Shown here piece after piece: positions 1,484-62,979 of a DNA stretch of 64,000 nucleotides. Origin of the DNA: Candidatus Izemoplasma sp. GTDB taxonomy: Bacteria; Bacillota_I; Bacilli_A; Izemoplasmatales; Izemoplasmataceae. Location of the stretch: NCBI GenBank assembly GCA_021736205.1, contig JAIPGF010000003.1:7772-71771 (forward strand), given 5' to 3'. The notes beneath the pieces are model-generated. The model made no database searches, was not told the DNA's origin, and saw nothing but the letters and a program-made list of their open reading frames with translations. Every line of letters starts with the position of its first letter. Position 1 is the stretch's first letter. The position numbers and the translations under genes were made by a program.

Positions 1484-3199
1484 TCATCCTTTTTCTAGTG
1501 GGAAGTATATCTGAATCGTTGTACTTTCATCTAAAACACTCTTTATATGTATTCCTGAGCGTTCTCCATAATATAACTTTAGACGCTGTACAACATTTTT
1601 AAGACCAATACTTTCATGGTTATCATTCTGTATCTTTTCATAAATCTCTTCTATTTGTTCATCAGTTAATCCATACCCATTATTCATAACCTCGAAATAG
1701 ATAAACCCATCTTTTTTATATACAGAAATATCAATTTGACCTTTAAACTCTGTGCTAATTCCATGATGTATGGCATTTTCGATAATAGGCTGCAATATAA
1801 GTTTAACAACTTTTTTATCTTTGATTGATTCTTCAACGTTTACAGTATATTCAAATTTATTAGAATATCTAATTGTTTGAATTTTTAAGTAATATTTGGC
1901 ATGTTGAATTTCTTTATCAATCGTAATAATATCTTTTCCTCTTGAAATACTTATTCTGAAGAAGCGACTAAGTGCCATAACCATTTCTATAACATGTTCG
2001 TTATCATTTTGTTCTGAAAGCCAAATAATAGAATCAAGTGTGTTATATAAAAAGTGTGGATTAATTTGTGTTTGAAGCGCAATCAATTCTGTTTTACGTT
2101 TTTCATTTTGTTCATCAACAAGTTGATTCATTAATCCTCTAATTTCTTTAATCATCTCATTATAAGCCGCAGCTAAGATTACAACTTCTTTTTGTCCACG
2201 TACTTCAACTTCTTTATATAGATGATCACTATGTTGTATATCAGTCATGTGCTCTTTTAATTTATTTAAGGGTCTTGTTATTTGCTTTGTTAATATAGAA
2301 GCTATTAATGTTGAAATGAAAATTGTTACAACCAAGACGGTTGATAAAAGAAAAAATATCGATATTTTTGAACTTCCAATCAAATCAACATTAATAAACG
2401 TCGCGATACGCCACCTTGTTCCATGTATCGTATTAATACTCACATACATATCTGTACCATCAATTGATACAAAATCGCCACCGATAATGATTTTTCTAGC
2501 TATAACGTTACTATCACAGGTAGAATTTTGACATTTGTCTGTCGAAGAATAAATCAATTGATTTTTATCGCTAATAATAATTAGATGTCCATTTTCACCT
2601 AAATTGGTTTGTTTAGCAAGGGTGTCTATTTGTTCAGTACTTAATTCAATTAATAAAACACCTGAGTATTTTTGTGAATATTCATAATAATCAATTTGTT
2701 TAGATACACTAATTACTTGTTCATTACTATCAACAAAGACATCTTGTGGATGGGGTGTTGAAAAGAAATACACTTCTTCGTTATCAATTGCCCGATCAAA
2801 CCAATAACGTTCTGTTAAATCCTCATAAGCTGAATAGTTTAGTTTACTTGTTGCAGCAATTGTACCATCCATCTTTACTAAACTAATCGTAATTGTGTCA
2901 CTATTTAATGTTGCAACATTACTATATATTTCATGTAAACTTTCTTGATTCGCAATTTCAACTTCTTTGGTTTTTAATTCAATGTAATTCGCAAGATCTC
3001 TAACATCATTAAAATAGTTTTCATAATTTAAAATGATTTGTTTATTAATCTCTTTAGAGTTTGCTTCTACAATTTCATCAACTGTATTGTATGTATTTAT
3101 ATAGATAAACGCGCTCGCGAACAACAATGCGGTAGACAACAATAAAATTACAGCATAATTAAGCTTTCTGTCAATGCTTAATTGTTTAAACCATTTCAT
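1484..3199 (-). CDS. sensor histidine kinase, YesM/LytS-type (two TM segments, extracytoplasmic domain, HAMP, His_kinase, HATPase_c)
   Basis: 571 aa. The INPHFLYNTLDSI motif marks the PF06580-type phosphoacceptor region. The C-terminal ATPase part contains ENAIHHG and GYGL. It overlaps the regulator gene by 14 nt. Confidence 0.85.
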   Translation of the reverse strand: MKWFKQLSIDRKLNYAVILLLSTALLFASAFIYINTYNTVDEIVEANSKEINKQIILNYENYFNDVRDLANYIELKTKEVEIANQESLHEIYSNVATLNSDTITISLVKMDGTIAATSKLNYSAYEDLTERYWFDRAIDNEEVYFFSTPHPQDVFVDSNEQVISVSKQIDYYEYSQKYSGVLLIELSTEQIDTLAKQTNLGENGHLIIISDKNQLIYSSTDKCQNSTCDSNVIARKIIIGGDFVSIDGTDMYVSINTIHGTRWRIATFINVDLIGSSKISIFFLLSTVLVVTIFISTLIASILTKQITRPLNKLKEHMTDIQHSDHLYKEVEVRGQKEVVILAAAYNEMIKEIRGLMNQLVDEQNEKRKTELIALQTQINPHFLYNTLDSIIWLSEQNDNEHVIEMVMALSRFFRISISRGKDIITIDKEIQHAKYYLKIQTIRYSNKFEYTVNVEESIKDKKVVKLILQPIIENAIHHGISTEFKGQIDISVYKKDGFIYFEVMNNGYGLTDEQIEEIYEKIQNDNHESIGLKNVVQRLKLYYGERSGIHIKSVLDESTTIQIYFPLEKG

Positions 3200-4775
3200 G
3201 ATTACGATACTCCCTTGGAGATGAACCAGTTACTTTTTTAAAACTATGACTAAAATAATAAACATCTTTATACCCTACCTTAACTGAGATATCGACAATC
3301 TTTAAGTCGGATGTTTTAAGAAGTTCTTTCGCCTTATCCATTCGCATTTTTATTAAGTACTTACTAAACGTGTATCCACTATGCTTTTTAAACAACATGC
3401 TTAAATATGATATTGAAACATTTAATTCCTGGCTTAATTGTTCAAGCGACATAGATGGATCTGGGTAATTTTGCTTAATGTAATCTATCGCTCTTTGTGT
3501 TAATTCCTCACTATGTGATAGTTGCTTACGTGTATCCTGTTCACGAATCTTTAAAATGATATCAAGGAAATAATCAATCATTTCTTCATAACGCGTATAA
3601 ATGTTTAACTCGCTTACTAAATCAATATTTGTTATTTCATCCAACGGAATTTTTGCTTGTTCAGCTAAATTAATTAATAAACTTGATAATTCAATTATGA
3701 CATATTCTCTAATATATTTACTTTTATCTTGTATAATACGTTCTTTTAACTCATTTGTTTTCTCTTTAATCATTTCTTCTTTACCATACTGAATCAAACG
3801 ATCAAATGAATTAAAATCACTTATAGAAATAAATGATTGTTTAATCTCAGCGTTATACAGTTCTTCAGCGAAAACAATGTTGTTATAATTAAATAAATTC
3901 GCATAACTTAACGCTCTTTTAGCTTGATTGTAGGATTTGGGAAATGCTTCAAAATTGGAATACTTATTTGACACACCTATAAGTAGTCCTGATTCTAAAA
4001 ATTCTTTAGAGGATTGTGATAATTCAAATAATAATTCATCAGCTTTGTTTTTTTCATATGTTTCAAGAGAAAAAATAAACACAATCCCGTCTGCTACTAG
4101 TAACGTATGTTTAAAGGGGATTGATTTGAACACCTTTTTAAACATTTCATTTGTATTAATTTTAATTCTCTCTATAGATTTTAAAGAAGTCTTTTTTGAA
4201 TTAACACTGACTAAAGCAGTAGTAAAATTTGATTGATTTGATACATCAATCCCATATAAACTTAACTTTTTAATCCCTTCTTCACTAATTTTATCTAAAT
4301 TAATCAAAGAACTTAAATAACTATCCCCAATAATTGGTAGTAGTTCTTCATATTTCTCTTTCATAACCATAATGTCTTTCATTTGTTTATAATCACTATC
4401 AAGATTCTTTTTTAAATCTTTTAAAAACATATTAATTTCTTTTGAGCTGATGGGTTTCATGATATAATTATCAACTTGTAGAGAAACAGCTTCTTTTGCA
4501 TAATTAAATTCATCATACCCCGTAATAAATGCCACCTTGATCATCGGATAATCACGACGAATAATCCTTGTTAACTCAATCCCATCAACAAAAGGCATTT
4601 TAATGTCTGTTAAAACAACATCGACATCTTTCTCTTCAATAAGTTCTAATGCATCATGACCATTCCCTGCAGATCCAACTATATTAAATCCTATATCCGA
4701 TGATATTTTTGAAGCAATTCTACCTCTAATTTCATCTTCATCATCAACTAATATAATGTTATATGTTTTTGCCAT
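3186..4775 (-). CDS. response regulator, CheY receiver + AraC-type HTH (YesN-like)
   Basis: 529 aa. The N-terminus ILVDDEDEIR...DVVLTDIKMP is a receiver domain. The C-terminal part (SISYLSMLFKK...GYKDVYYFSHSFKK) is an AraC HTH. Confidence 0.9.
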   Translation of the reverse strand: MAKTYNIILVDDEDEIRGRIASKISSDIGFNIVGSAGNGHDALELIEEKDVDVVLTDIKMPFVDGIELTRIIRRDYPMIKVAFITGYDEFNYAKEAVSLQVDNYIMKPISSKEINMFLKDLKKNLDSDYKQMKDIMVMKEKYEELLPIIGDSYLSSLINLDKISEEGIKKLSLYGIDVSNQSNFTTALVSVNSKKTSLKSIERIKINTNEMFKKVFKSIPFKHTLLVADGIVFIFSLETYEKNKADELLFELSQSSKEFLESGLLIGVSNKYSNFEAFPKSYNQAKRALSYANLFNYNNIVFAEELYNAEIKQSFISISDFNSFDRLIQYGKEEMIKEKTNELKERIIQDKSKYIREYVIIELSSLLINLAEQAKIPLDEITNIDLVSELNIYTRYEEMIDYFLDIILKIREQDTRKQLSHSEELTQRAIDYIKQNYPDPSMSLEQLSQELNVSISYLSMLFKKHSGYTFSKYLIKMRMDKAKELLKTSDLKIVDISVKVGYKDVYYFSHSFKKVTGSSPREYRNHEMV

Positions 4776-4896: not shown

Positions 4897-5700
4897 TTAT
4901 GGCTGTAATGCACCAACTAAAACCAACCATGCTAAGACTGATTTAGCTACCAAACTTAAAATAATGTATCCGCGTTCTCCGTATAAATAATTTTTCCATT
5001 TTCCTTTTTTTAAATATTGGAAAATCATATTTACAGGAAATGAGTTAAATGCAATGAAGTACGTAATAACAATCGCCCAGACAAACCAAGGTGTCTCAGC
5101 GGTTGCTTCTGGTGAAGCGCCTGTCATATACAAAATAATAGCTATCCATGGTGCCAAGCCTGCAATGCTTCCCCAAATAAATGGTCCCCAATTAACATCT
5201 TCTTTTTCTTTACCTGAGTTTAATTGTTCCATCACAAGACCAAATAAATTCATTGATGCATTAACAAGAAAAATCAAAATAAGTGATGCGATATCCCATA
5301 CACCAAATAAATATGCTATAAGGACTATCATAATTGATGAACTAAGTGCATACTCAAACCATCTAAATCTATTAATACCTTTTTCTAGATCTTTATTATA
5401 GATAGTATTAAATTTCTCTGGCAGTGAGATTAAAGCATGTGCTATTGCAGAAATTAATAGAAACATAGCAACTAAAACAAAAAATGGTAACGTAAATGCC
5501 TCGGTTCGTGCAAAAGCTAAGTATCCTTGTCCAGGTCCTGTTTCAACAAATGTTAAATAATGCTGATAAAGTTGCATTTTAAAATCTCCAAGATCACTAA
5601 GAACTAATCCAAGAATAATCATAAGAATACCTTGAACTAAATGAAATGCACCCATAATGATATTGAATTTTCTTAAACTTTTTAAAGATGTTTTTTCCAT
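4897..5700 (-). CDS. heliorhodopsin (7-TM retinal protein with inverted topology)
   Basis: 267 aa. It aligns by eye with heliorhodopsin 48C12 along its whole length: FNIIMGAFHLVQ, FRWFEYALSSSIMIVLIA (counterion Glu), VNASMNLFG, and GERGYIILSLVAKSVLAW (Schiff-base Lys in SLVAKS). Confidence 0.85.
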   Translation of the reverse strand: MEKTSLKSLRKFNIIMGAFHLVQGILMIILGLVLSDLGDFKMQLYQHYLTFVETGPGQGYLAFARTEAFTLPFFVLVAMFLLISAIAHALISLPEKFNTIYNKDLEKGINRFRWFEYALSSSIMIVLIAYLFGVWDIASLILIFLVNASMNLFGLVMEQLNSGKEKEDVNWGPFIWGSIAGLAPWIAIILYMTGASPEATAETPWFVWAIVITYFIAFNSFPVNMIFQYLKKGKWKNYLYGERGYIILSLVAKSVLAWLVLVGALQP

Positions 5701-6079: not shown

Positions 6080-6158
6080 AAGAAGGAAAAGGCATTCTTG
6101 AAGAAATTCAAGCGATCGCAAAACTATAGGGCCTGTAAAATGGTAGCCAGTTACCACG
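6080..6158 (+). promoter_or_regulatory. c-di-GMP-I (GEMM-I) riboswitch-like aptamer, copy 1
   Basis: A GNRA-capped hairpin TTGAA-GAAA-TTCAA (6098-6111) is followed by GATCGCAAAACTATAGGGCC, a short hairpin, and TAGCCAGTTACC (6144-6155). This matches the remembered GEMM-I core (GACGCAAAGC..GGG ... AGC.G.UUACC of Vc2). It shares CTATAGGG and TAGCCAGTTACC exactly with copy 2 on the other strand. Confidence 0.65.
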
Positions 6159-6183: not shown

Positions 6184-6224
6184 ATTGCTATATACAGACT
6201 TTAATTATGATTGGAAGTGATCAG

Positions 6225-6827
6225 ATGATTACACGGAGATTTGTTCAGATCAGTACAGTAGCTATATTATTAATAGGGTTTATCTTTACATCAGGTTCTG
6301 CGTTTGCTTATTGGAGAGAAGTTAATGTTTCCAGAGATGTAGAAATCGTAAAGATAGGAGAACCTATTGAAATAATAGTTGACGATATCTATTCTGAAAG
6401 TAATCTTCATTTAGTCCCAGAAGGATACATTATAAGTGTTCAAGATGTTGAAGAAGTCCAACTTGAATATGAAGTAAGTGTTTCTCGAGAACTAATAAAT
6501 ACTGTTAATTTAAATATACGAGCTGTTGATATTTTAATTGATGGTTCTGATACTTATAGCCATCTTGTAGATATATCAATTATGGGTTTAGGTAGCGAAG
6601 CTCAGTTAGATCTCTTTAATGAAGCTTTAACAATTTATGTTACAGTAAGACTAGAAGAACCATTTGATGAAGAAGAAGTTGTAGGGAAAAACTTAGATGA
6701 ATCCCTTGTGAATGTGGAAGACTCTGAGTTAGCTTATCAAACAATAACAGGTAAGACCATAACATTCACACTAAATTTTGAATTAGAAGTAAAAGAAATT
6801 TCTAGCAACGACAATTCACAGAATTGA
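6225..6827 (+). CDS. secreted protein with a SipW-cognate-type signal peptide (paralogue A of the fibre-subunit family)
   Basis: The ORF track starts at 6207. The ATG at 6225 (MITRRF...) follows GGAAGTGA and is the likelier start. The hydrophobic N-terminus ends in GSAFAYWRE. The C-terminus ITGKTITFTLNFELEV matches the ends of the 6873 and 9627 proteins. Confidence 0.7.
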   Translation: MITRRFVQISTVAILLIGFIFTSGSAFAYWREVNVSRDVEIVKIGEPIEIIVDDIYSESNLHLVPEGYIISVQDVEEVQLEYEVSVSRELINTVNLNIRAVDILIDGSDTYSHLVDISIMGLGSEAQLDLFNEALTIYVTVRLEEPFDEEEVVGKNLDESLVNVEDSELAYQTITGKTITFTLNFELEVKEISSNDNSQN

Positions 6828-6872: not shown

Positions 6873-7403
6873 ATGAAAACAAAAAAATTAGGAATAGCGT
6901 TATTAGTAATGTTAGCGCTAGTAGTTACAACCGGAACATTTGCTTATTGGGCAAGTAGTGTAACAGACGGAACTAATACTGTTGGTGGGACTGTTACTGT
7001 TGGTACTGGTGAACAAGTTACAACTACTGTAACGGTAACTGCTCAATCTGATTTAAACGGCAATTTGGTACCTGTTGGATTTGAAGATGCAACAAAAGTT
7101 AATAATCTTGACTTAACGTTCCCAGTTACTTGGACTGCCGATCAAGCAGGTGCAGATGGAATCGTCGGAAATTTAAATGTAACAATTTCCAATTATGCTA
7201 TTGGTACACTTACTGGGACTGCTGTAACAGATATGTTTACAGTAACAATAACATCAGGTTCCGGAGCAATCACTGAAGGTGTATCACAAAATGTTATTAT
7301 CAATGTTGAATTTACAAATGAACCAACTGATTCAACTACATACAGCCAAGTTGCTGGAAACGACTTAACATTTGATGTTACATTTACAGCATCAGCCAAC
7401 TAA
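6873..7403 (+). CDS. secreted Thr/Val/Gly-rich protein with a SipW-cognate-type signal peptide, candidate major TasA-like fibre subunit (paralogue B)
   Basis: Strong RBS AAAGGAGA. The signal peptide ends in TGTFAYWASSV. The body is T/V/G-rich (TVGGTVTVGTGEQVTTTVTVTAQ) and has no Cys. The C-terminal motif is EPTDSTTYSQVAGNDLTFDVTFTASAN. Confidence 0.75.
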   Translation: MKTKKLGIALLVMLALVVTTGTFAYWASSVTDGTNTVGGTVTVGTGEQVTTTVTVTAQSDLNGNLVPVGFEDATKVNNLDLTFPVTWTADQAGADGIVGNLNVTISNYAIGTLTGTAVTDMFTVTITSGSGAITEGVSQNVIINVEFTNEPTDSTTYSQVAGNDLTFDVTFTASAN

Positions 7404-7442: not shown

Positions 7443-7754
7443 ATGAGTATTAAAAAGAAATTACTGTTAGTATCTACTTTGCTACTGACACTTTTTGGTG
7501 CTACGTTTGTCACTGATAATTCTTATGCGTATTGGGCTTCAAGTATTTCATCTACTCAACAAACTACTACTGGTACTGTAACAGTTAGCTCATGGAATTT
7601 TATTCCAATTTGGGACAGTACAACAACCTATTATTCAGGTGATGTTGTTGAGTATAACGGATCTTATTATGAAGCTAAAAAGACAAATACAAATGAAGAA
7701 CCAGAAATTGCTAAAGGTTGGAGAAGTAACTGGACTCAAACTACAGTTAACTAA
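7443..7754 (+). CDS. small secreted protein: SipW-cognate-type signal peptide fused to a CBM5/12 (chitin-binding type) module
   Basis: RBS AAGGTGGTG. The signal peptide ends in NSYAYWASSIS. The tail WDSTTTYYSGDVVEYNGSYYEAKKTNTNEEPEIAKGWRSNW fits the W..Y..GD.V.Y.G..Y.A...P...W pattern of CBM5/12. Confidence 0.7.
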   Translation: MSIKKKLLLVSTLLLTLFGATFVTDNSYAYWASSISSTQQTTTGTVTVSSWNFIPIWDSTTTYYSGDVVEYNGSYYEAKKTNTNEEPEIAKGWRSNWTQTTVN

Positions 7755-7764
7755 ATACACAAAT

Positions 7765-7803
7765 AAATAGGCACATATAAATCCGTGCCTATTTATTTTT
7801 TTT
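7765..7803 (+). terminator. rho-independent terminator ending the fibre-subunit transcript
   Basis: Perfect 10-bp stem AAATAGGCAC (7765-7774) / GTGCCTATTT (7785-7794), then a T-run to 7803. Confidence 0.85.
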
Positions 7804-7841: not shown

Positions 7842-8393
7842 ATGATGAAAAATTCACAAATAAAAGAAAATATAACTATATTTGGATCAGCTATTTTAAT
7901 CGCAATATTGATCATATATATTCTTTTTCAATTGTTTATGCCTAAACTTACTATAAAAGTCTTTGGTGCTAAGCCCTATAACGTTATTACTGAAAGTATG
8001 GAACCTGTATTAGATGTAAATGATATCGTTGTTGTGAAACGCTTTAAAATAGATAACGCAGAAGAAGGCGATATTATAACTTTTAATGCAGATATTAATT
8101 ATGATGGCACAAAAGAAATTGTAACCCATTATATTTATTCTATAACTGGAACTGATGAAAATAGAGTTATTAGGACGAATAGACATTATGACAACATGAA
8201 CAATGCCGTTCCTGACACATGGTTCCTTAATGAGGACGATGTAATTGGTACTTACTGGTTTCATATTCCAAAATTAGGTTATGTTAGTGAGTTTTTAAAA
8301 AGTCCTTTTGGTATTGCTGCAATGATAGTCAATATAGGCGTTATTGTTGGTGTCGTATATCTAATTAAACAAGGGAATGAAGTTAAGGAATAG
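7842..8393 (+). CDS. sipW: signal peptidase I, SipW / ER-archaeal type (paralogue 1)
   Basis: The ORF-track start at 7785 lies inside the terminator. ATGATG at 7842 follows AGGAGG. Motifs match B. subtilis SipW: VITESMEP (nucleophile Ser), GDIITF, VTHYIY (His), GTYWFHIPKLGYV, and a C-terminal TM. Confidence 0.8.
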   Translation: MMKNSQIKENITIFGSAILIAILIIYILFQLFMPKLTIKVFGAKPYNVITESMEPVLDVNDIVVVKRFKIDNAEEGDIITFNADINYDGTKEIVTHYIYSITGTDENRVIRTNRHYDNMNNAVPDTWFLNEDDVIGTYWFHIPKLGYVSEFLKSPFGIAAMIVNIGVIVGVVYLIKQGNEVKE

Positions 8394-8402
8394 GTTTTTA
8401 AA

Positions 8403-8981
8403 ATGTCTAAAAATAAAAATAATATCAAGCAAAAACTTAAATTATTATACTTAAAAATAAAAAAGACCAAAACTACCCATTTTATATTTTTAGGTATTTT
8501 AGTACTCTCAGTCGTAAATATTTCTATTATGAGCTTATTTTTTTATGATAACGATTATAATTATAAAATAATGAACATATCTTATATAAGCGCCATCACA
8601 CCTGAACAAGATGTGAATGAAACATTGTATACCAACGTTATTAAAATCAAGGAATTCAACTTAAATAACGCAACTATTGGTGATTTAGTCATAATCTATG
8701 ATGATTTTAGTACCAATGAATACTGGGTAGAGAAAATCATCGATATAAATGAAACAACCAAAGAAATAACAGTCACTTATGATGAAGTTTCAAACAACAA
8801 CATTTCTTATAACAATATATATGGAACATACATTAAGAAAGCAAATATCTTTGGAACAATTTATCACACAGCTATGTTTACTAGAGGATATATCTTACTT
8901 GTGTTTAGTCACATTTTTATTCTAGCGGCTTATTATACTTATTTTATCCTCCATGTAAAGGAACCAAAAAAGCGAATTTGA
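8403..8981 (+). CDS. SipW-fold paralogue lacking the catalytic residues (predicted pseudo-peptidase)
   Basis: It has the same architecture as its neighbours: N-terminal TM, GDLVIIYDD, IYGTYIKKANIFGTIY, C-terminal TM. SAITPE replaces S(D/E)SMEP, and EYWVEKII replaces VTHY. Confidence 0.6.
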   Translation: MSKNKNNIKQKLKLLYLKIKKTKTTHFIFLGILVLSVVNISIMSLFFYDNDYNYKIMNISYISAITPEQDVNETLYTNVIKIKEFNLNNATIGDLVIIYDDFSTNEYWVEKIIDINETTKEITVTYDEVSNNNISYNNIYGTYIKKANIFGTIYHTAMFTRGYILLVFSHIFILAAYYTYFILHVKEPKKRI

Positions 8982-8990
8982 GGTGTCTAG

Positions 8991-9557
8991 ATGAAAAAAC
9001 ACATTGGTAAGTTCTTCATATATTTAATTTACACACTATTAATTAGTTATATTGTCATTACAGTGTTTTTTCCAAATAAAAGTACAGATATATTAGGCTT
9101 TCGTACATTCGTTGTTATATCAGATAGCATGGAGCCTAAAATAAATGTGTATGATATGGTTGTTATTAAAAAGGTCGATAAAGAAGACATACAAGTATCT
9201 GATATCATTACGTTTAAAGTCTATATTCCAGAAGTTGATTCAAAAAGTTATGTAACGCACTATGTTGACGAAATAATTATTAATTCTGAGAATGAGACAA
9301 TCTACAAAACACAGGGTGAATCGACTGCCGAAAATCCTGATGTTTGGACTGATGCAGATGGCAATGTTATAGATATCAGCTACAATGATGTCGAAGGAGT
9401 TTATCTTTTTAAGATTCCTAAAATTGGTCGGTTAATATATCTGTTAAGGGATCCTATCTTTGTCGGATTACTAATAGTAAATGGTTTCGTCATTTACTTT
9501 GTGTACAAATATATTAAAAAGTTACTATTTGATGCTAAAAATGAGAAAAAGGACTAG
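8991..9557 (+). CDS. sipW: signal peptidase I, SipW / ER-archaeal type (paralogue 3)
   Basis: RBS GAGGTG. Motifs are VVISDSMEP, SDIITF, YVTHYVDE, KTQGEST, GVYLFKIPKIGRL and a C-terminal TM. Confidence 0.8.
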   Translation: MKKHIGKFFIYLIYTLLISYIVITVFFPNKSTDILGFRTFVVISDSMEPKINVYDMVVIKKVDKEDIQVSDIITFKVYIPEVDSKSYVTHYVDEIIINSENETIYKTQGESTAENPDVWTDADGNVIDISYNDVEGVYLFKIPKIGRLIYLLRDPIFVGLLIVNGFVIYFVYKYIKKLLFDAKNEKKD

Positions 9558-9579
9558 ATTTTAAAATCTAGTCCTTTTA
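9550..9579. terminator. bidirectional terminator between the convergent peptidase and paralogue-D genes
   Basis: Perfect palindrome AGGACTAGATTTT / AAAATCTAGTCCT (9550-9575). It is flanked by A-rich sequence on the left and TTTTAA on the right, and it overlaps the TAG stop at 9555-9557. Confidence 0.7.
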
Positions 9580-9626: not shown

Positions 9627-10133
9627 TTAATTTGCATAAAATGATACATTAAACATCAGTTGTCCACCAGCCAGTTGTTGGTACAACTCGTGGGTGCTTG
9701 GCTCGTTCATGGAAATACTTAATGAAACAATCACACGGATTGCTGATTCTTTACCCTCAAAAAGATGCTCTGAATAATCTAATGATTCTACTGTTTCTAT
9801 GTCGATATGGAAATTGAAAATAGCTTCAAGATTAGCTTCTGTTACAGTTGAATTAGAAAATACTAAATCAATTATTTCAGCATCCAACACCAAACCATCT
9901 TTAACAATCAGTTCATATTCATACTGTATAGTATGTACATCATTCACTGTACGAACTTGATTAGAAGGGATCAACGTGCTCTTGCTATCACTAATTAATG
10001 TTTCATTGATAATGTAGCTATCAGATGTTTCATTGATATAAACATTATCATCTTTTACAACACTTGCATAAATAGATGTTGTTGTTGAAAAAATTAAAAA
10101 AATCAAAACTAGACTTTTTAAGATGTTTTTCAT
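9627..10133 (-). CDS. secreted protein, paralogue D of the fibre-subunit family
   Basis: The ORF-track start at 10160 is unlikely. The ATG at 10133 (MKNILKSLVLIF...) follows AGGAG (10142-10146). LIPSNQVRTVNDVHTIQYEYELIV and EPSTHELYQQLAGGQLMFNVSFYAN parallel LVPEGYIISVQDVEEVQLEYEVSV and ITGKTITFTLNFELEV of paralogue A. Confidence 0.7.
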   Translation of the reverse strand: MKNILKSLVLIFLIFSTTTSIYASVVKDDNVYINETSDSYIINETLISDSKSTLIPSNQVRTVNDVHTIQYEYELIVKDGLVLDAEIIDLVFSNSTVTEANLEAIFNFHIDIETVESLDYSEHLFEGKESAIRVIVSLSISMNEPSTHELYQQLAGGQLMFNVSFYAN

Positions 10134-10160
10134 CTTAACCACTCCTATGGGGGTTAACAT

Positions 10161-10245
10161 CAGGTAACTGGCTATCTCGGTGAGATCCTTCTCAGTGAGA
10201 CCCTATAGCTTTCCGTCACAAGATTGCTCCTGCTTTGGCTTTATC
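10161..10245 (-). promoter_or_regulatory. c-di-GMP-I (GEMM-I) riboswitch-like aptamer, copy 2
   Basis: The minus strand reads GCCAAA-GCAGGA-GCAA-TCTTGT-GACGGAAAGCTATAGGGTCTCAC..GAGATAGCCAGTTACC. That is a GNRA (GCAA) tetraloop hairpin, a GACG.AAAGC core, a long P3-like hairpin and a 3-prime AGCCAGTTACC. The element order matches the Vc2 c-di-GMP-I aptamer as I remember it. Confidence 0.7.
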
Positions 10246-10297
10246 AAATATCAACACCATAGAAATGAAATCTCTATAGTTTTGATTTGATACTTTA

Positions 10298-10364: not shown

Positions 10365-11603
10365 CTATCTAATTATATCCAAAAAGACATCTACAATAGC
10401 CGGATCAAATTGTTTTCCACGATTATCAATTAATTCTTGAATTGTTTTTTCTTCAGATAATGCTTTTCGATAAATACGATCATTAGACATTGCATCATAC
10501 GCATCTACAACAGCTAAAATTCTAGATAATAATGGAGTTTCTTCCCCTTTTAGTTCTTTTGGATACCCTGTCCCATCCCACCGTTCATGGTGTGTTAATA
10601 TATAATAAGAAATAGCTTCTAATTGGGGCACACCGCTTGCGATTTTATATCCAATAATAGGATGCTGTTTCATTTTATTATATTCTACTTTAGTCAGTTT
10701 TCCAGGCTTTTTTAAAATACTATCATCAATACCAATTTTACCTATATCATGTAAGATAGCAAATAATTTTAAATCATTGATGTCATTTGTTTTTAAATCT
10801 AATTTATACCCTAATTGTGCGCAAAGTTTTTCCATTCGTGATGCGTGTTGCTCAGTTTCATCACTACGCTCAAACAAGGATGTTTTTAAAGATTTAACAA
10901 GTGAACTACTCGCACTTTTAACTAATAACAATTTATTTTTAAGCATACTATCTTCAGCATATGACAGCGTAGAATAAATATTTTTAGAATCAGACGTCGT
11001 ACTAAATCCCATAGCTACAGTCAGTTCTATATCTTTGAATATATTATAATCTAAATTTTTTCTAATTTTTTCAATCATATTTTCGATATGTTTTTTCTTA
11101 GTATGATAAAAAATGACACAAAACTCATCGCCGCCAACGCGCGCAATGAAAGTCTCATCAGATAAGCTATCTTTTAAGATTTCTGCATAACTTGAAAGTA
11201 GTTTGTCCCCATATTCTGAGGAATAAAACTCATTTATTAATTTTAACCCATTAATATCAGTAATAAGAATAGATGCTTCAATCTCCTGTGAATAAATACG
11301 GTTTAATTCTTGATCAAAACTACTTCTATTATGTACCCCTGTAAGTAAATCAAAGTTTTCTAACTGCACTATATTATCTTCAGCTTTTTTTATAAGAGAA
11401 ACTTCTCTTTTTACCAAATAATAGATAATCAAAGCAGAAATCACGATAAAAAATAACCCTTTTATTGTTGATGTATATCTATATTGATAAACATCATCGA
11501 TCACAACCAATAAGATATAATCTGATAAAAAAATCCAAGATGCGCTAAATAATAGGTAAATGATTGAAACTCTAAAGGCAGATGTAATATTTTTATTTTC
11601 CAT
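10365..11603 (-). CDS. membrane-anchored GGDEF diguanylate cyclase fused to an HD-GYP phosphodiesterase domain
   Basis: It has N-terminal TM helices and a literal GGDEF (ARVGGDEFCVIF). HD-GYP signatures are HDIGKIGI and HHERWDGTGYP. The ORF track starts at a GTG at 11612; the first ATG is at 11603. Confidence 0.9.
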   Translation of the reverse strand: MENKNITSAFRVSIIYLLFSASWIFLSDYILLVVIDDVYQYRYTSTIKGLFFIVISALIIYYLVKREVSLIKKAEDNIVQLENFDLLTGVHNRSSFDQELNRIYSQEIEASILITDINGLKLINEFYSSEYGDKLLSSYAEILKDSLSDETFIARVGGDEFCVIFYHTKKKHIENMIEKIRKNLDYNIFKDIELTVAMGFSTTSDSKNIYSTLSYAEDSMLKNKLLLVKSASSSLVKSLKTSLFERSDETEQHASRMEKLCAQLGYKLDLKTNDINDLKLFAILHDIGKIGIDDSILKKPGKLTKVEYNKMKQHPIIGYKIASGVPQLEAISYYILTHHERWDGTGYPKELKGEETPLLSRILAVVDAYDAMSNDRIYRKALSEEKTIQELIDNRGKQFDPAIVDVFLDIIR

Positions 11604-11960
11604 ATAAATCACTTAAGGGGTTTTAGATAACTACTACTCCCTTAACCTCCTATATATAATTATATCATTTAAATCACATATAAAAAGCAATATAAGTTTA
11701 CAGAAAACTTTTTTTATTGTTTTCTTTGTTAAATAAAAACAATACAGGTTGTTTAAAATCTGTATACTCTCTTATCGATGTAATTTTTATACTCATCTAT
11801 GAAATTTATAACTTTTTTTGATATATCTCTTATTTCTTATTATTTTTCCGAAAATACCATCATTAAGACAATTATATAATTAACTACAAATCATATAGAA
11901 AAAAATCCCAGAAACACCTACAACTTTTAGTAGATATGTTTTCTAGGATATGAATTTTAC

Positions 11961-62821: not shown

Positions 62822-62847
62822 AAAAAAATAGAGAATTACCTCTGTTA
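62822..62847 (-). terminator. weak putative terminator (expression platform of the guanine riboswitch)
   Basis: The minus strand reads AACAGAG-GTAATT-CTCTATTTTTTT, a short AT-rich stem plus T7, directly after the P1 3-prime strand. Confidence 0.4.
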
Positions 62848-62849
62848 TT

Positions 62850-62919
62850 ATATCATAGTCCCAAATGTTACGGTCTGGGGTAGAGACAATCGAACCTTAT
62901 TTTCGATCATATATGATAT
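62850..62919 (-). promoter_or_regulatory. purine riboswitch, guanine-type (C at the specificity position)
   Basis: The minus strand reads ATATCATA-TAT-GATCGAA-AATAAGG-TTCGATT-GTCTCTAC-CCCAGA-CCGTAACA-TTTGGG-AC-TATGATAT. P1, P2 and P3 and the junctions match the B. subtilis xpt aptamer (UAUAAU..GUUUCUACC..CCGUAA..GACUAUG). The junction 3/1 reads AC, so it is guanine class. Confidence 0.85.
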
Positions 62920-62979
62920 CAACCAACTTCAATAGTATCAGAAATTATCCTAAAACACAATAAAATAAAAACACTTTCA

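Follow-up and report, generated by a model that had tools for sequence, protein, structure and literature searches.

A 64,000-nucleotide stretch of contig JAIPGF010000003.1 from Candidatus Izemoplasma sp. (GenBank assembly GCA_021736205.1), analysed here as a whole and referred to as the window, carries a gene for a strongly diverged SipW-type signal peptidase paralogue that lacks the catalytic Ser/His dyad, is maintained under selection, and holds a fixed place between two SipW-like signal peptidase genes in an operon controlled by cyclic di-GMP (c-di-GMP). We refer to its product as the middle protein and to the flanking enzymes as peptidases A and B. We consider it fairly probable that the middle protein acts as a pseudo-signal-peptidase, a receptor without catalysis that partners peptidases A and B or binds their substrates and has an output in the cytoplasm.

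The middle gene is an unbroken open reading frame (ORF) that starts with ATG and encodes 192 amino acids (aa). Gaps of 9 nucleotides (nt) separate it from each neighbour (peptidase A stops at 8393 and peptidase B starts at 8991), all three genes lie in one common reading frame, and each has a plausible ribosome-binding site (AGGAGG for peptidase A, AAGGAA for the middle gene and GAGGTG for peptidase B). The coordinates, length, spacing and motif quotations given for this gene in an earlier sequence-only reading agree throughout with the ORF listing and with the hhalign comparisons described below.

The middle ORF gave no match at E<=1 to TIGR02228, NF046067, TIGR02227, PF10502 or PF00717, none of 43 members of its family matched any Pfam peptidase family, and a sequence search of the PDB with the family profile returned only coiled-coil and transmembrane (TM) noise together with weak S1-domain matches. 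Pairwise comparison with the neighbours is likewise weak, reaching BLASTP E values of 0.003 against peptidase A (residues 63-96) and 0.007 against peptidase B (residues 116-182). Profile-profile comparison with hhalign, however, aligned the middle family with the flanking peptidases, the latter represented by an alignment built from six loci, over the whole length of the proteins (Prob 98.2%, E 3.4e-14, 159 colinear columns). The ectodomains alone, compared to exclude inflation of the score by the TM helices, aligned end to end over 107 columns (Prob 95.2%, E 2.5e-8), and reversed-profile controls stayed below a probability of 1% with E values of about 0.09. In addition, hidden Markov models (HMMs) of the middle family and of the peptidases detect each other's members at E values from 1e-5 to 1e-10, and in a MAFFT alignment of the fused window chain all three families, the middle one included, stacked unprompted onto the peptidase A portion. 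The hhalign alignment pairs ISAITPEQ with ITESMEP, EYWVEK with IVTHYI, GDLVII with GDIITF, and YGTYIKKANIFGTIY with IGTYWFHIPKLGYV. It thereby reproduces the motif matches that the sequence-only reading had presented as conserved structural blocks, even though the pairwise similarity behind those blocks is slight, and it bears out the proposed descent from SipW. It is thus because of the profiles, and not of any pairwise comparison, that the homology of the middle protein to its neighbours is convincing. We regard homology to SipW/Sec11 as well supported, with structural similarity consistent with it though not demonstrated. By operational criteria (HMM cut-off, Ser and His), the sequence places the middle protein outside S26B, although it has common ancestry with that family.

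The AlphaFold2 model of the full-length protein, with a predicted local distance difference test (pLDDT) score of 92.7 and a predicted template modelling (pTM) score of 0.78, comprises in order a helix that includes the first TM segment (residues 3-48), seven strands between residues 59 and 146, one further short helix, and the second TM helix at the C-terminus (residues 160-186); the ectodomain modelled by itself reached a pLDDT of 82.8. Two hydrophobic segments are present in nearly all family members. The predicted topology is SipW-like, with an N-terminal TM helix, an extracytoplasmic beta domain and a C-terminal TM helix, and with a smaller ectodomain. That the middle protein is no relative of SipW, and that the likeness to the peptidases of what would be a protein of separate origin, with two TM helices and an SH3-like barrel, reflects composition, topology and chance, would fit the missing matches to curated models and PDB sequences, the modest pairwise BLAST values, and top Foldseek matches to Tudor/SH3-like barrels at E values above 0.03, but we consider it scarcely credible given the end-to-end ectodomain match with its reversed controls, the colinear order of the motifs, a sole whole-domain structural match to a member of S24, which shares a clan (SF) with S26, and the almost invariable placement of the gene between two SipW genes.

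In the hhalign alignment, the column of the nucleophilic Ser falls on P67 of the middle protein and that of the His on E110. Among 91 distinct family members, the Ser-aligned column holds Pro in 36, Tyr in 16, Met in 8, Asn in 6 and Ser in 3, and the His-aligned column holds Glu in 54, Val in 13, Gln in 7, Ala in 5 and His in 3. A shifted dyad was not found either, since across 82 near-full-length members no ectodomain column contains more than 46% Ser, 22% His or 32% Lys. As judged from these alignments, the family ectodomain has neither a Ser/His nor a Ser/Lys dyad, shifted or otherwise, in agreement with the loss of both catalytic residues that had been proposed for the window protein. The family has conserved residues of its own, including Q69 (74 of 91 members), W108 (75), D127 (73), G141 (83), Y155 (75) and G162 (84), with further conserved ectodomain positions at G93-D94, A147-N148 and G151. 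It could be argued that Q69, E110 and D127, which cluster at the former active-site columns, form a non-canonical centre, such as an eqolisin-like Glu/Gln dyad, and that the middle protein is still a hydrolase. We find this very improbable, because about 40% of members have Val, Ala, Gln or Met in place of E110; furthermore, no peptidase model, whether glutamic, aspartic or of another class, resembles the protein, its fold is smaller than that of S26, and the same cassette already encodes two canonical peptidases.

The family was seen in full only through an exhaustive HMMER search of 1.84 billion representatives, which recovered 62 clusters (defined at 50% identity) at E<1e-3 and 45 at E<1e-10; a word-indexed protein search found only 2 matches with the single sequence and 15 with a profile. 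About 90 distinct sequences make up the family, which spans Izemoplasmatales, Acholeplasmataceae, Mariniplasma, Peloplasma and Haloplasma, and in which every named member is labelled 'hypothetical protein' (for example WP_008825425.1 of Haloplasma contractile). The ratio of non-synonymous to synonymous substitution rates (dN/dS), estimated by the Nei-Gojobori method from orthologue pairs (seven or more for the middle gene), lies between 0.11 and 0.27 for the middle gene, compared with 0.06-0.28 for peptidase A and 0.07-0.20 for peptidase B. In the least saturated pair (L029/L030), the corresponding values are 0.112, 0.070 and 0.089. On these ratios the middle gene evolves somewhat faster than those of peptidases A and B, yet is clearly constrained. 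In line with purifying selection, the gene is unbroken in all loci examined (about 30 genomes or contigs) and no disrupted pseudogene homologues were found among them. Together with the high pLDDT of the model, these results uphold the suggestion that the gene is not decaying. With peptidase homology, lost catalytic residues and purifying selection, the middle protein can, on the evidence of these comparisons, be classed as a pseudoenzyme.

The flanking peptidases are recognised by curated models. Peptidase A scores 74 bits and peptidase B 60.7 bits against TIGR02228 (archaeal/ER-type signal peptidase I; cut-off 51.85), peptidase A also matches PF10502 (E 2.6e-7), and both match NF046067 (SipW) below its cut-off. 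They share 33% identity with each other (E 2e-25), and a joint profile of the two matches human SEC11C (7p2q, E 6e-10) and SEC11A (7p2p, E 1e-9), with the SEC11 catalytic residues aligned to the SMEP Ser and the VTH His. The sequence-only reading had called both neighbours intact, which stands as far as the dyad is concerned, Ser and His being present in each, but does not extend to the canonical GDN Asp box, which is conserved in neither; they are thus taken as intact by the dyad alone, as read from their sequences. The true start of peptidase A is the ATG at 7842, with AGGAGG 7 nt upstream; the GTG at 7785 that mechanical ORF calling assigns as its start falls within the hairpin at 7761-7798. 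Among relatives, B-type genes conserve Ser and His at all loci, and the peptidase in the A position retains them at all listed loci except L005 and L006/L007, most of those A loci having been retrieved via a pattern that contains the A-type His motif. At L005 the A-type peptidase (3087-3662) has DTMEP and VTYY in place of the dyad motifs, and at L006 (783-1316; also at L007) both boxes are missing, the B-type enzyme being canonical in each case. Given this loss of the A-type dyad in two distant loci, degeneration of paralogues within the cassette is recurrent.

Outside the window, looking up family members and scanning the GTDB species genomes recovered the order A-middle-B at 28 further loci or contigs, not all of which are complete. 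The scan used an alignment of A-type peptidases, the middle family having no stretch of 7-10 columns that is conserved enough, and the recovered loci are accordingly biased towards A genes with an unbroken VTHYIY motif. Carriers include Haloplasma contractile, Ca. Izimaplasma HR2, Mycoplasmatota strain zrk2 and Peloplasma aerotolerans, together with metagenome-assembled genomes (MAGs) of Mariniplasma, Xianfuyuplasma, Izemoplasmatales and Acholeplasmataceae, and are mostly wall-less or related Bacilli. In P. aerotolerans, the gene in the B position (L043:5802-6359) bears the A-type signature IVTHYIYS in place of the B-type VTHY[ILV][GA][DE], a sequence pattern that suggests gene conversion or replacement inside the cassette. 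An apparent fusion of the middle gene with peptidase B at L012 proved to be a mere scaffold gap (a run of N), and P0036, which has an epimerase N-terminus, looks chimeric or derived from a truncated contig and was set aside.

Several relatives carry cytoplasmic additions to the middle protein. An N-terminal HTH_3 domain of the XRE type (E about 2e-17) is present in P0005, P0009, L009:2080-3069 and L011:5692-6699, and a C-terminal Bac_DNA_binding domain of the HU/IHF type (E about 1e-17) in P0006, P0012 and L025:5564-6706 (Ca. Izimaplasma HR2). All fused members with known context lie within an A-middle-B cassette. The HTH_3 clusters contain 3 and 5 member sequences (from NCBI, ENA, JGI and Logan) and the HU form is represented by three separate sequences, and because the fusions are seen in several sequences and archives they are unlikely to be assembly artefacts. 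Given the basic N-terminal tail and the two TM helices, both types of fused domain would be cytoplasmic. Furthermore, about 25 members begin with [YF]L[ST]T[DE]EL (for example L020:1836-2447, L043:5158-5760, P0023 and P0028), as part of a peptide x[YF]L[ST]T[DE]EL[LV]xxL at the very N-terminus that characterises a Mariniplasma/Acholeplasmataceae-like subclade and is absent from the window protein; other members, the window protein included, have strongly basic N-terminal tails. The recurrence of such additions implies that the family may link an extracytoplasmic event to the cytoplasm, and the DNA-binding fusions argue no less for a part in signalling or regulation than for a scaffold.

The genes upstream of the cassette encode three classes of small secreted protein (Table 1). 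The class 1 protein of the window has no family match in Pfam or NCBIfam, and orthologues of about 195 aa with a SAFAYW[RQT][ED]V motif at the same position occur at some 20 loci. Class 2 proteins (about 175 aa, ...TGTFAYWAS) are conserved in position among loci; the window copy scores 14.4 bits against TIGR04088 (cognate_SipW; cut-off 19, E 0.031), and weak signal-peptide matches were obtained for orthologues, to TIGR04088 in 5 of 15 (best E 1.9e-4) and to TIGR04090 (BsaA) in 2 of 15. The class 3 protein matches PF02839 at E 9e-6 with 26.1 bits, against a cut-off of 26.2; its gene (about 100 aa, ...SYAYWAS followed by CBM_5_12) also occurs at L003, L004 and other loci, and is enlarged to 435-534 aa with many repeats at L005, L022 and L043. 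Across about 30 loci, the signal or TM segment of all three classes ends in a near-invariant [FY]A[YF]W, a motif that resembles the TasA/SipW-type signal peptide. Cleavage probably follows ...FA, akin to the cut between GTWA and AF in TasA. Membership of the TasA/camelysin group is not established by the matches of the substrates, which were sub-threshold for Peptidase_M73 and BsaA and otherwise confined to the SipW-cognate signal-peptide model. The number of substrate classes equals the number of SipW-like genes, at three each.

Two c-di-GMP-I riboswitches head the two convergent transcription units of the locus, and riboswitches of this type were present in all 14 related loci scanned, in one to three copies each. 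The hairpin between the structural genes and the peptidase cassette was placed by the scan on the minus strand; on the plus strand its stem is followed by TTTTTTTT. On the evidence of its sequence, the locus looks like a c-di-GMP-controlled adhesion or matrix module. The C-terminus of the convergent gene's product (YQQLAGGQLMFNVSFYAN) resembles those of classes 1 and 2, and the gene has a Haloplasma counterpart at L004 2893-3393, whose product carries ...TRIYAYWKDT. Beyond it, 10365-11612 on the minus strand encodes a membrane protein with GGDEF (RVGGDEFCVIF) and HD-GYP (HHERWDGTGYP) motifs, a c-di-GMP turnover enzyme. Just upstream of the operon, on the opposite strand (4897-5700, minus), the precomputed contig annotation places a heliorhodopsin (PF18761). 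Elsewhere in the window lies a purine riboswitch (62836-62936, minus strand), and tetrahydrofolate (THF) riboswitches lie just downstream of the cassette at L022, L043, L038, L029 and L005; both are probably unrelated to the present finding.

Table 1. Features of the middle gene, its cassette and the surrounding operon, in window coordinates.
Feature	Position	Strand	Description
c-di-GMP-I riboswitch	6081..6158	+	Operon leader; Rfam RF01051, 42.8 bits (gathering score 35)
Secreted protein, class 1	6207..6827	+	206 aa; probable peptidase substrate; TM/signal segment ending ...SGSAFAYWREV
Secreted protein, class 2	6873..7403	+	176 aa; probable major fibre/matrix subunit and SipW-type substrate; signal ...TGTFAYWASS, then GTVTVGTG strand
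Secreted protein, class 3	7443..7754	+	103 aa; signal ...DNSYAYWASS and CBM_5_12 (chitin-binding type)
Hairpin followed by T-run	7761..7798		Between structural genes and peptidase cassette; 15-bp stem; possible attenuator or partial terminator
SipW-like signal peptidase A	7842..8393	+	183 aa; SMEP Ser and VTHY His; TIGR02228, PF10502
Middle protein, highly diverged SipW paralogue, catalytically dead by alignment	8403..8981	+	192 aa; profile homology, no Pfam, NCBIfam or PDB sequence match
Middle protein, Lys-rich cytoplasmic N-terminal tail (predicted)	8403..8477	+	Residues 1-25, 10 Lys
Middle protein, TM helix 1	8478..8546	+	About residues 26-48; AlphaFold2 helix 3-48, hydropathy
Middle protein, extracytoplasmic seven-strand beta domain (predicted)	8547..8882	+	Residues 49-160; reduced S26-like core; ectodomain hhalign, AlphaFold2
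Middle protein, TM helix 2 and short basic C-terminal tail	8880..8960	+	About residues 160-186; AlphaFold2 helix 160-186
SipW-like signal peptidase B	8991..9557	+	188 aa; SMEP Ser and VTHY His; TIGR02228
Bidirectional terminator-like hairpin	9547..9578		Ends the cassette; hairpin scan
Convergent gene, fourth small secreted protein	9627..10160	-	177 aa; signal ...TSIYASV; own riboswitch
Second c-di-GMP-I riboswitch	10160..10249	-	Leader of the 9627-10160 gene; RF01051, 56.4 bits, E 2.4e-8

Signal peptidases bind their substrates as an extended strand in a groove of the conserved barrel, as seen in S26 structures. As a working model, we suggest that the ectodomain of the middle protein, derived from S26B and pared down to a seven-strand barrel, would be positioned at the outer face of the membrane beside peptidases A and B, where the dead domain could either hold the FAYW junction of a precursor uncut or bind the ectodomains of the two peptidases. 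Such binding would serve to gate, order or report how the matrix or fibre proteins are processed and assembled, a state to which the basic tail would couple the cytoplasm. HTH_3, HU/IHF or the YLSTDELL peptide replaces or extends this tail in relatives, such that some lineages may link the system directly to DNA. The middle protein could be a subunit of a hetero-oligomeric peptidase or a transmembrane sensor and regulator, and we favour a role that combines the two.

Several observations weigh against this proposal. Foldseek searches of the PDB with the full-length and ectodomain models returned no match at E<0.001 to any structure, those of S24 and S26 included; the only whole-domain match, to the C-terminal domain of lambda cI (1kca, S24), covers 105 columns with TM scores of 0.49 (TMq) and 0.55 (TMt) and is non-significant at E 0.12, and the remaining matches, to Tudor/SH3-like barrels, span 50-60 residues. 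An association of peptidases A and B with the middle protein is supported by conserved gene order alone. At four loci (L013, L018, L027 and L040) peptidases A and B are adjacent with no middle gene between them, which makes this gene dispensable in some lineages. The window protein itself has no DNA-binding domain, just a Lys-rich tail of 25 residues, and a regulatory role for it is therefore drawn by extension from its relatives. Even in those relatives, an XRE-type HTH on a membrane protein need not bind DNA, as RodZ illustrates, and the idea that an HTH fusion replaces riboswitch control was rejected, since the HTH-fused loci keep their c-di-GMP riboswitches. A correlated loss of the middle gene and the class 1 gene, also considered, is true for L013 and L018 but false for L027, and is unsupported.

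The strongest competitor of the receptor model is a pure scaffold, in which the middle protein would be an obligate non-catalytic subunit that stabilises an A/middle/B heterotrimer without signalling, resembling in function an accessory subunit of the eukaryotic signal peptidase complex (SPC), or else the way in which Imp1 and Imp2 stabilise each other. The strictly conserved gene order with its 9-nt gaps and possible translational coupling, the two-TM topology and membrane-proximal G-x-Y...G motif common to all three proteins, and the similar constraint on all three genes would be consistent with such a subunit, which we hold to be a possible, if unlikely, explanation: some lineages retain peptidases A and B without the middle gene, and the HTH_3, HU and YLSTDELL additions would have no obvious use there. 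At the other extreme, and in our opinion rather doubtful, the whole family might be a class of transmembrane signal transducers not recognised before, with a dead signal peptidase as their framework. The pseudo-active site would read the presence or processing state of FAYW precursors, or how active the SipW enzymes on either side are. It would then signal to the basic tail in the window protein and, in relatives, to the YLSTDELL peptide, the XRE-type HTH or the HU/IHF domain. DNA binding or gene expression would in this way respond to the secretion and assembly of a matrix under c-di-GMP control, perhaps through cleavage by a neighbouring peptidase. Signalling through such cleavage has precedents in RsiV and iRhom2.

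Another explanation, which we judge improbable, is that the middle protein serves as a membrane anchor or substrate trap, its dead cleft holding an uncleaved FAYW junction and so tethering the base of the fibre in cells that lack a wall; in Bacillus, this tethering is the job of TapA and the cell wall. A trap of this kind would fit the named sources of the family, which are wall-less or related (Haloplasma, Izemoplasmatales, Acholeplasmataceae, Mariniplasma and Peloplasma), the cleavage-site motif kept in all substrates, and a peptide-binding barrel retained after the catalytic residues were lost. It is, however, entirely inferential, the fibre itself being only presumed; the taxonomy of several MAGs is uncertain, with some labelled Bacillales or Clostridia, and the DNA-binding fusions would be left unexplained. 

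A literature search found no paper on an inactive SipW paralogue, nor on SipW or this cassette in Izemoplasma or Haloplasma. Inactive signal-peptidase paralogues as such are already known, as in the case of SpsA, and are functionally obscure; what is new here is the family-level picture and the evidence from DNA-binding fusions. Neither Pfam nor NCBIfam has a model for this whole, well-conserved family of ER/SipW descent, and its fixed context and natural fusions make the role of dead signal peptidases directly testable in a defined system. The analysis also describes a conserved, c-di-GMP-regulated module of secreted proteins in free-living wall-less Bacilli (Izemoplasmatales, Haloplasma and Acholeplasmataceae), a group with a little-known surface biology. 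The module probably forms an adhesive matrix or fibres and has a component of the chitin-binding type. As a minimum, a family model for the pseudo-peptidase could be added to annotation pipelines.

Among known systems, iRhoms are likewise membrane pseudoproteases that have kept client recognition and have functional cytoplasmic N-terminal domains, and iRhom2 is cleaved by the SPC and its N-terminal part sent to the nucleus (PMC7618786). An analogous course is conceivable for the HTH_3-fused members. iRhoms are, however, eukaryotic and belong to an intramembrane protease family of unrelated fold, and a cleavage of the middle protein would be hypothetical. In Clostridioides difficile, one locus encodes an active subtilisin-like protease and two pseudoproteases (CspB, CspA and CspC), of which the dead copies act as receptor or regulator of the active one (PMC7200643, PMC4619724). 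The Csp proteins thus resemble the present cassette in that an active protease and dead paralogues are encoded together, and differ in being soluble spore proteins of the subtilase clan with no DNA-binding fusions. The SPC subunits that the sequence-only reading had brought up as a conceptual parallel (SPC12, SPC25 and SPC22/23) are non-catalytic partners of a Sec11-type peptidase but are not Sec11 homologues, and the likeness to the middle protein is indeed conceptual only.

The comparison with Bacillus subtilis SipW and with Sec11 is one of common ancestry, N-in topology, an extracytoplasmic domain and a C-terminal TM helix, and the operon linkage to proteins with SipW-type signal peptides recalls tapA-sipW-tasA of B. 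subtilis. Unlike these enzymes, the middle protein has neither the Ser nor the His and fails TIGR02228, NF046067 and PF10502, and its ectodomain is trimmed between the His strand and the last strands; unlike B. subtilis, which has one SipW, the cassette holds three paralogues. In a second role, B. subtilis SipW reportedly acts in regulation, without proteolysis and in dependence on its C-terminal tail. This role, the Csp pseudoproteases and iRhom2 are precedents for the logic of the working model.

The closest precedent, closer than the eukaryotic SPC subunits, is SpsA of Staphylococcus aureus, an inactive type I signal peptidase that has lost both catalytic residues, is encoded beside the active SpsB and has an unclear role (PMC12414704). 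The middle protein is, like SpsA, a retained signal-peptidase paralogue without both catalytic residues and encoded beside an active enzyme. The two differ in type, SpsA being a relative of the P-type S26A peptidases (Ser/Lys dyad) with one TM segment, whereas the middle protein is of the ER/SipW type (S26B, Ser/His) with two. SpsA is, moreover, still recognisable as a homologue of signal peptidase I, whereas the middle protein is too diverged for any curated model. Finally, the middle protein differs from SpsA in its setting, with an active paralogue on each side and an operon dedicated to matrix proteins, and in belonging to a family with DNA-binding fusions.

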